NCBI RefSeq assembly: GCF_053078305.1
Contig: NZ_CP166879.1
Strand: one strand, 5' to 3'
Length of the DNA: 64,000 nt
Position 1 is the first letter of the stretch. Every line of letters starts with the position of its first letter. A model generated the notes under the pieces. That model did no database searches, was not told the origin of the DNA, and worked only from the letters and a program-made list of their open reading frames with translations. The translations under genes and the position numbers were made by a program. Shown here in pieces: positions 34,908 through 35,017 of this stretch.

Positions 34908-35017
34908 AAAAAAAAGCCCGGACGACTGTTCGGGCTTGTCTTTTTATATGTTGGAAAATCAGTGGCAATGCAATGGCCCAACAGAAAATAAAATCTGTGA
35001 CAATAAAGGCATATAAC
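34908..35017 (-). ncRNA. micC: MicC small RNA (Hfq-dependent regulator of porin mRNAs)
   Basis: Reverse strand reads GTTATATGCCTTTATTGTCACAG...AGCCCGAACAGTCGTCCGGGCTTTTTTTT; divergent from ompN. Confidence 0.8.

Follow-up and report, generated by a model that had tools for sequence, protein, structure and literature searches.

The terminator hairpin of the small RNA gene micC and its possible partial role in ending the convergent ydbK transcript

The small RNA gene micC ends in a G+C-rich hairpin that lies a short distance past the stop codon of the convergent gene ydbK, and the question raised by this locus is whether that one structure ends both transcripts. A preliminary description of the stretch of DNA analyzed here (64,000 nucleotides of contig NZ_CP166879.1, RefSeq assembly GCF_053078305.1; hereafter the window) had proposed that it probably does. 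We found that this proposal stands in part: the hairpin folds on both strands and is the only terminator-like site of its surroundings, but the U-tract on the ydbK side is interrupted and unconserved. Our main reading, to which we assign a probability of about 0.6, is that the MicC terminator serves as a leaky, Escherichia-specific terminator for ydbK, that is, in a partial dual role.

The minus strand from 34908 to 35017 is micC. In an Rfam scan of the entire window, the MicC model (RF00121) matched 34900–35020 on the minus strand with 125.3 bits (E = 2e-19), over model positions 1–123 of 123 and against a gathering score of 90 bits. In the curated K-12 record, micC (b4427) occupies 1437121–1437231 on the plus strand, 111 nt, between ompN and ydbK, both on the minus strand. 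The copy in the window is 110 nt long, and its sole difference from b4427 is a terminal run of T8 rather than T9; the interval 34908–35017 thus extends exactly from the +1 G of MicC, at 35017, through the last T of that run. The MicC-like sequence that the preliminary description had recognized on this strand is therefore confirmed both by the model, a comparison proposed there as a check and carried out here, and by the K-12 sequence. The alternative, that the region holds no MicC and that its terminator-like hairpin arose by chance in AT-rich spacer DNA, draws on the low G+C content of the spacer and has no other support; it has a negligible probability against a full-length covariance-model match 35 bits over threshold, a curated K-12 gene identical except for one T of the terminal run, and a conserved seed with its ompC pairing. 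A chance origin of the MicC match was accordingly rejected on the grounds of the covariance model, the K-12 identity, and the ompC pairing.

At least 5387 of 5426 complete E. coli genomes contain the locus, taken as 701 bases around the site at a coverage of 80% or better, and many of these copies are 100% identical. In some E. coli strains (GF31, YZMc3-1), IS1 elements are found in or beside micC; in GF31, the alignment with the window stops within micC, after query base 93, and ompN carries a frameshift. None of the PGAP-annotated E. coli RefSeq genomes examined carries a micC feature, the annotation being present in the curated K-12 record only, which is worth noting for annotation. The gene, its neighbors, and its ompC-pairing 5′ end are the same here as in the MicC of K-12 (RF00121; b4427; Chen, Zhang, Blyn & Storz 2004), and the window strain differs from the K-12 locus in that its terminal run is shorter by one T and that it is without the nearby Rac prophage. 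The genes concerned (window positions 36447 to ~39800), uspF, an intact ttcA (37129–38064), and dbpA, are contiguous in a RefSeq strain 100% identical over window positions 34700–35400, and in K-12 a 23-kb Rac element and a ttcC remnant adjoin uspF. The identity of micC, its position relative to ompN and ydbK, and its ompC pairing have been known since 2004, the position being textbook knowledge, and nothing in them is new.

The target-pairing region of MicC is its 5′ seed (nt 1–22; 34996..35017, minus strand), as delimited by the ompC duplex and by ortholog comparison. When MicC nt 1–30 were paired computationally with the K-12 ompC leader, nt 1–21 paired with leader positions −46 to −15 through 15 contiguous pairs, an internal loop, and 6 more pairs. 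The duplex energy is −26.5 kcal/mol, compared with a mean of −13.4 for shuffled seeds, and 0 of 1000 shuffles were as good. The seed is unchanged in all orthologs retrieved (Escherichia, Salmonella, Citrobacter, and Pseudocitrobacter), an invariance that is partly built into the sample because the orthologs were found with a pattern from the same 5′ sequence. Through this end, MicC would base-pair with the ompC mRNA leader and repress OmpC. Published Northern blots show a roughly 110-nt Hfq-bound RNA from the micC locus, and a Rho-independent terminator with a long 3′ poly-U is the Hfq-binding module of sRNAs. MicC of K-12 has been characterized as a ~109-nt Hfq-dependent RNA that represses OmpC (Chen et al. 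2004, as cited in PMC5745476).

Upstream of the hairpin on the plus strand lies ydbK (31355..34879), which encodes a pyruvate:ferredoxin (flavodoxin) oxidoreductase of 1174 aa (TIGR02176, 1632.9 bits); the same open reading frame is named nifJ in RefSeq and ydbK in K-12. Since ydbK, on the plus strand, ends at 34879 and MicC has its 3′ end at 34908, the two genes are convergent, as had been described. From the ydbK TAA (34877–34879) there are 34 nt to the extended stem, which begins at 34914, and 36 nt to the G-C core, which begins at 34916, so the earlier figure of 35 nt between stop and hairpin was right to within 1 nt. On the opposite side, the plus-strand porin gene ompN (35245..36378; a porin of the OmpC/PhoE/OmpF group, named OmpN in both RefSeq and K-12) is divergent from the minus-strand micC, again in agreement with the preliminary description, across a divergent promoter region of 227 nt (35018..35244). 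Dam et al. 2017 (PMC5745476) cloned a fragment of this same length, and no strong sigma-70 consensus was found on the minus strand of the spacer. The arrangement is similar to that of the micF-ompC locus (PMC5745476), in which an sRNA repressing one porin is likewise divergent from another porin gene, but MicF belongs to another sRNA family and has another target (ompF).

Two side observations concern the surroundings. The 3′ UTR of ydbK carries, between the stop and the terminator, a perfect 7-bp palindrome (TGGATAA-GGA-TTATCCA, 34886–34902) that is conserved in Escherichia species, mostly with changes in the loop only, and is not conserved in Salmonella and Citrobacter; it could be an RNA hairpin or a protein-binding site. 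Elsewhere in the window, above-threshold Rfam matches were obtained for four further genes of known sRNAs or antitoxins, namely sok (1459–1610, plus strand, 109.7 bits), RydC (2170–2233, plus strand, 92.5 bits), FnrS (39831–39948, minus strand, 134.8 bits), and McaS (43326–43421, plus strand, 118.4 bits).

The hairpin common to both strands occupies 34914..34937, where A-U pairs lengthen a G-C core stem (34916–34935, with a 4-nt loop), and on the plus strand it comprises 10 pairs, 6 of them G-C. As RNA, the plus strand (ydbK sense) reads AAAAAAAA-GCCCGGAC-GACU-GUUCGGGC-UUGUCUUUUUAUAU and the minus strand (MicC) reads AAAAAGACAA-GCCCGAAC-AGUC-GUCCGGGC-UUUUUUUU. The G+C-rich hairpin and U-tract that had been reported at the end of MicC are thus present, as the stem at 34916–34935 followed by U8, and so is the U-rich stretch reported on the plus strand, where GTCTTTTTAT comes after the stem. 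The two senses are not equally stable. The sixth stem pair is a G.U pair on the plus strand versus an A.C mismatch on the MicC strand; the 38-nt fold has an energy of −16.9 kcal/mol on the plus strand versus −13.9 kcal/mol on the minus strand, with at most 1 of 200 shuffles folding as well, and the 20-nt core has −13.3 kcal/mol in the ydbK sense versus −9.3 kcal/mol in the MicC sense. The plus-strand RNA from 34860 to 34960 has a fold z-score of −4.2.

A terminator pattern scan of 34500–35500 returned a single terminator-like site, which is this hairpin on the plus strand, and no second such site between the ydbK stop and ompN; a yield of 1 site in this kilobase compares with 1.1 expected in shuffles. 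The scan reports the hairpin on the plus strand only because the A.C mismatch pushes the MicC-sense loop past its limit, and its silence on the MicC-sense terminator is thus a limit of the tool rather than evidence against that terminator. Sub-threshold Rfam matches to amino-acid leaders (Leu, Thr, Phe, and Trp) also fall here, at 34883–34944 on the plus strand and 34907–34986 on the minus strand, with the attenuator-terminator models of the Leu and Thr leaders reaching 24.5 and 19.6 bits on the plus strand and 22.5 and 20.4 bits on the minus strand. We rejected these as attenuators, since what matches is the generic terminator portion of such models.

The tails that follow the stem differ more than the stem itself does between the strands. 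MicC ends in an uninterrupted U-tract, read from the sequence as T8 on the minus strand (A8 on the plus strand; 34908..34915), while the U-rich tail in the ydbK sense that the terminator scan delimits (TTGTCTTTTTATAT; 34936..34949, plus strand) is interrupted. Using our own implementation of the d'Aubenton-Carafa weighting, the T-tract score is 3.24 for the plus strand versus 5.22 for the minus strand, and the other terminators in the window for which it was computed (ompN, uspF, and FnrS) score 4.2–5.3, all above the ydbK side. The ydbK-side U-tract, UUGUCUUUUU, has G and C interruptions at positions 3 and 5; the plus-strand tail UUGUCUUUUUAU passes the scan, which asks for five or more T in 8, yet carries these interruptions. 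Scores of 3.24 or more are reached by 0.8% of window positions versus 4.4% of positions in this AT-rich spacer, and because of the latter figure the ydbK-side tail taken alone is only weakly improbable, so that a chance origin of the plus-strand U-rich tail is a live possibility. An interrupted tail behind a stem closed by A-U pairs is also a feature of strong natural terminators, for example rrnB T1. From the hairpin and its tail, we would predict ydbK 3′ ends at about 34942–34946.

What gives the site its two-sided appearance is the flank. Among six strong terminators in the window (FnrS, McaS, RydC, ompN, uspF, and MicC), an A-rich 5′ flank is found at that of MicC only (AUAUAAAAAGAC on the 5′ side of the Escherichia hairpin), and this lone A-flanked terminator faces a convergent gene. 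As a result of the flank, the opposite strand also reads as a hairpin with a U-rich tail, 34–36 nt past the ydbK/nifJ stop. The hallmark of a bidirectional terminator has been described as an A-tract upstream of its hairpin (PMC12207403), and terminators of this two-way kind, common between convergent genes, form an established class; a dual role is, in this light, a structurally plausible reading of a palindromic arrangement of A-tract, hairpin, and T-tract between convergent genes. Like two-way intrinsic terminators, the micC hairpin lies between convergent units with A8 on one side and a T-rich tract on the other, but it differs from them in that one side is imperfect (TTGTCTTTTT, with no uninterrupted T-run) and unconserved outside Escherichia, and the literature implies substantial read-through on the ydbK side of the hairpin. 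The A-rich flank could also serve MicC itself, either as the A-U extension of the hairpin that appears in the fold or as an AU-rich Hfq context.

Variation among E. coli strains affects the two tails differently. The ydbK-side tail is polymorphic (GUCUCAUUAU, GUCUUCUU, GUCUUCUUUU, and GUCUUCUUAU), and on the MicC side run length alone varies, from 8 to 10 T. In the stem, the allele that gives A.C in MicC and G.U in ydbK is nearly fixed, being present in 3706 E. coli genomes by exact 51-mer match, versus 4 genomes with the perfect-stem version, as in strain 042. Two further, independent stem transitions, GTTC to ATTC in E69 and GGGC to GGAC in O145 RM12367, again leave MicC with a mismatch and ydbK with a wobble pair, the same polarity as that of the nearly fixed allele. 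In strain EcRL2, the wobble of the ydbK sense is lost through a transversion. All three Escherichia stem transitions therefore keep ydbK-sense pairing, although this is not significant (p = 0.125). The shared polarity may be only a hint of selection on the ydbK side, and a mutational strand bias could produce it as well.

To place the site in a wider context, we used an exact-pattern scan of GTDB species representatives, which yielded 13 loci, 12 of them relevant; Klebsiella, Enterobacter, and more distant genera were unsampled. A match to the 19-specified-base MicC 5′ pattern in Philodulcilactobacillus myokoensis (Lactobacillaceae) was set aside as due to chance, with no MicC terminator in its flank. 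The gene arrangement is largely shared: MicC has a convergent nifJ in 11 of the 12 loci, the twelfth lying at a contig end, and in the 10 loci with enough flank to measure, 25–39 nt separate the nifJ stop from the hairpin core. In 10 of the 12, micC has an ompN-like porin gene divergent from it; in Salmonella enterica subsp. arizonae and diarizonae, where nifJ is convergent, no ompN-like porin was found within ~4 kb upstream of micC, so that a porin gene does not accompany micC everywhere. In Pseudocitrobacter and UBA5654, a stem pair has undergone a compensatory change from C-G to U-A.

Conservation of the tails is one-sided. The MicC-side run is T7–T10 in every ortholog and strain examined, and T7–T9 among the 12 loci, where its T-score is 4.95–6.08. 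On the ydbK side, Escherichia has GUCUUUUUAU (T-score 2.9–3.3) and P. faecalis has GUCUUUUAUU (3.14), and the tail is degenerate in Salmonella (GUCAAUUUAU, 2.42), Citrobacter (GUCAGUAUGU, GUCAUUUUGU, or GUCAAUUUCA, 2.35–2.74), and UBA5654 (GUCAUAAAUA, 2.32), a range of 2.3–2.7 in these three, despite their also having a convergent nifJ. Among relatives that share the arrangement of genes, the U-tract is thus kept on the MicC side and not on both. That the MicC run is retained while the ydbK tail varies indicates that selection visibly maintains the MicC terminator; since the ydbK-side U-tract is not conserved, a role in terminating ydbK would be lineage-specific or incidental, and judged from these alignments any signal on the ydbK side is confined, at best, to Escherichia.

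Published work bears on the ydbK direction mainly through expression. It has been reported that ydbK and ompN are coexpressed in an operon activated via SoxS (Fabrega et al. 2012, FEMS Microbiol Lett 332:61, as cited in PMC6176095), and ydbK was found to be SoxS-regulated, with MicC among the SoxR-dependent array signals, by Blanchard et al. 2007 (PMC2064960). However, micC-lacZ and ompN-lacZ fusions with the local promoter region only showed no significant effect of paraquat or SoxRS (Dam et al. 2017, PMC5745476); the ompN-lacZ fusion, which carried the micC-ompN spacer only, was not responsive to paraquat, and both fusions were quiet under standard conditions (PMC5745476). Taken together, the SoxS operon report and the paraquat-silent ompN fusion imply that ydbK transcripts read through the hairpin. 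The simplest reconciliation would be that SoxS-driven transcription from the ydbK promoter partly passes the hairpin and continues, antisense across micC, into ompN. The literature thus argues against an efficient ydbK terminator and is compatible with partial termination. Both ydbK and micC are poorly expressed in laboratory media, and in one survey MicC was undetected in late-log or stationary phase. The portions available to us of the Term-seq supplements of Adams et al. 2021 list neither micC nor ydbK, nor any coordinate that begins with 14371 or 14372, the TERMITe supplements contain no 3′ end for micC or ydbK, and a full-text literature search returned no mention of ydbK-ompN.

The main competitor to a leaky dual role is that the hairpin terminates MicC only and is negligible for ydbK, whose transcripts would either run into ompN as a true operon or end elsewhere by Rho or degradation; the A-rich 5′ flank would then be a by-product of AT-rich composition or of the needs of MicC and Hfq. 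The report of one SoxS-dependent ydbK-ompN operon, in the form in which it is cited, favors this explanation, as do the ompN promoter fusion that does not respond to paraquat, the contrast between an interrupted, polymorphic, and unconserved ydbK-side U-tract and a MicC run of T7–T10 retained everywhere, the 4.4% of spacer positions that score 3.24 or more from composition alone, and the lack of enrichment over shuffles in the pattern scan. It has more difficulty in accounting for a hairpin that is stabler in the ydbK sense and is then followed by 9 U in 12 nt, for a MicC terminator that alone among the six in the window is symmetric and faces a convergent gene, and for the stem transitions in Escherichia, all three of which keep ydbK-sense pairing, short of significance as they are. 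Nor does the interrupted tail tell decisively in its favor, as strong terminators of the rrnB T1 kind have such tails too. On balance, we consider termination of MicC alone to be unlikely, though it is the alternative to be taken most seriously.

Far less probable is termination driven by collision, a model that Ju, Wang and Liu have described for pairs of convergent genes in E. coli (bioRxiv 10.1101/2022.10.23.513370) and under which the hairpin would be a pause site for head-on polymerases and their collision would set both 3′ ends. Two convergent units with one common hairpin and predicted 3′ ends overlapping by roughly 35 nt would suit that model, and in this respect the locus resembles the overlapping bidirectional sites seen by SEnd-seq (Ju, Li & Liu 2019; for example, ynaJ-uspE), which likewise combine a convergent pair, a common stem-loop, and overlapping 3′ ends, here predicted ones. 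However, the sites of that class have been described as collision-driven and unlike intrinsic terminators, whereas the micC hairpin resembles an intrinsic terminator, and is a canonical one on the MicC side, where the U8 tail suffices for intrinsic termination. Collision would moreover need frequent simultaneous transcription, and this is at odds with a MicC that was undetected late in growth in one survey and with quiet micC-lacZ and ompN-lacZ fusions. A more elaborate form of the leaky reading is that the leak is tuned, such that SoxS-induced read-through from ydbK makes a long RNA, antisense to micC and including ompN, that would switch on the porin and occlude the micC promoter or titrate MicC. 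The SoxS co-expression report, the paraquat-silent fusions, and a nearly fixed allele that weakens the stem in the MicC sense only are all consistent with such tuning, which we nevertheless regard as doubtful.

Under the preferred reading, a leaky dual-role terminator, the MicC Rho-independent terminator consists of the 8–10 bp G+C-rich hairpin and the U8 tail, and RNA polymerase arriving from ydbK would form the same hairpin in a slightly more stable version. Transcription of ydbK would then terminate at about 34942–34946 with intermediate efficiency, and the remaining ydbK transcripts would continue past the hairpin and along the antisense strand of micC as far as ompN, the quiescent porin gene. 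If the ydbK side is leaky in this way, transcription past the hairpin would link ompN to the oxidative-stress gene ydbK and produce an RNA antisense to micC, and the SoxS-dependent ompN and 'MicC' signals may thereby be reconciled with the failure of paraquat to induce the promoter fusions.
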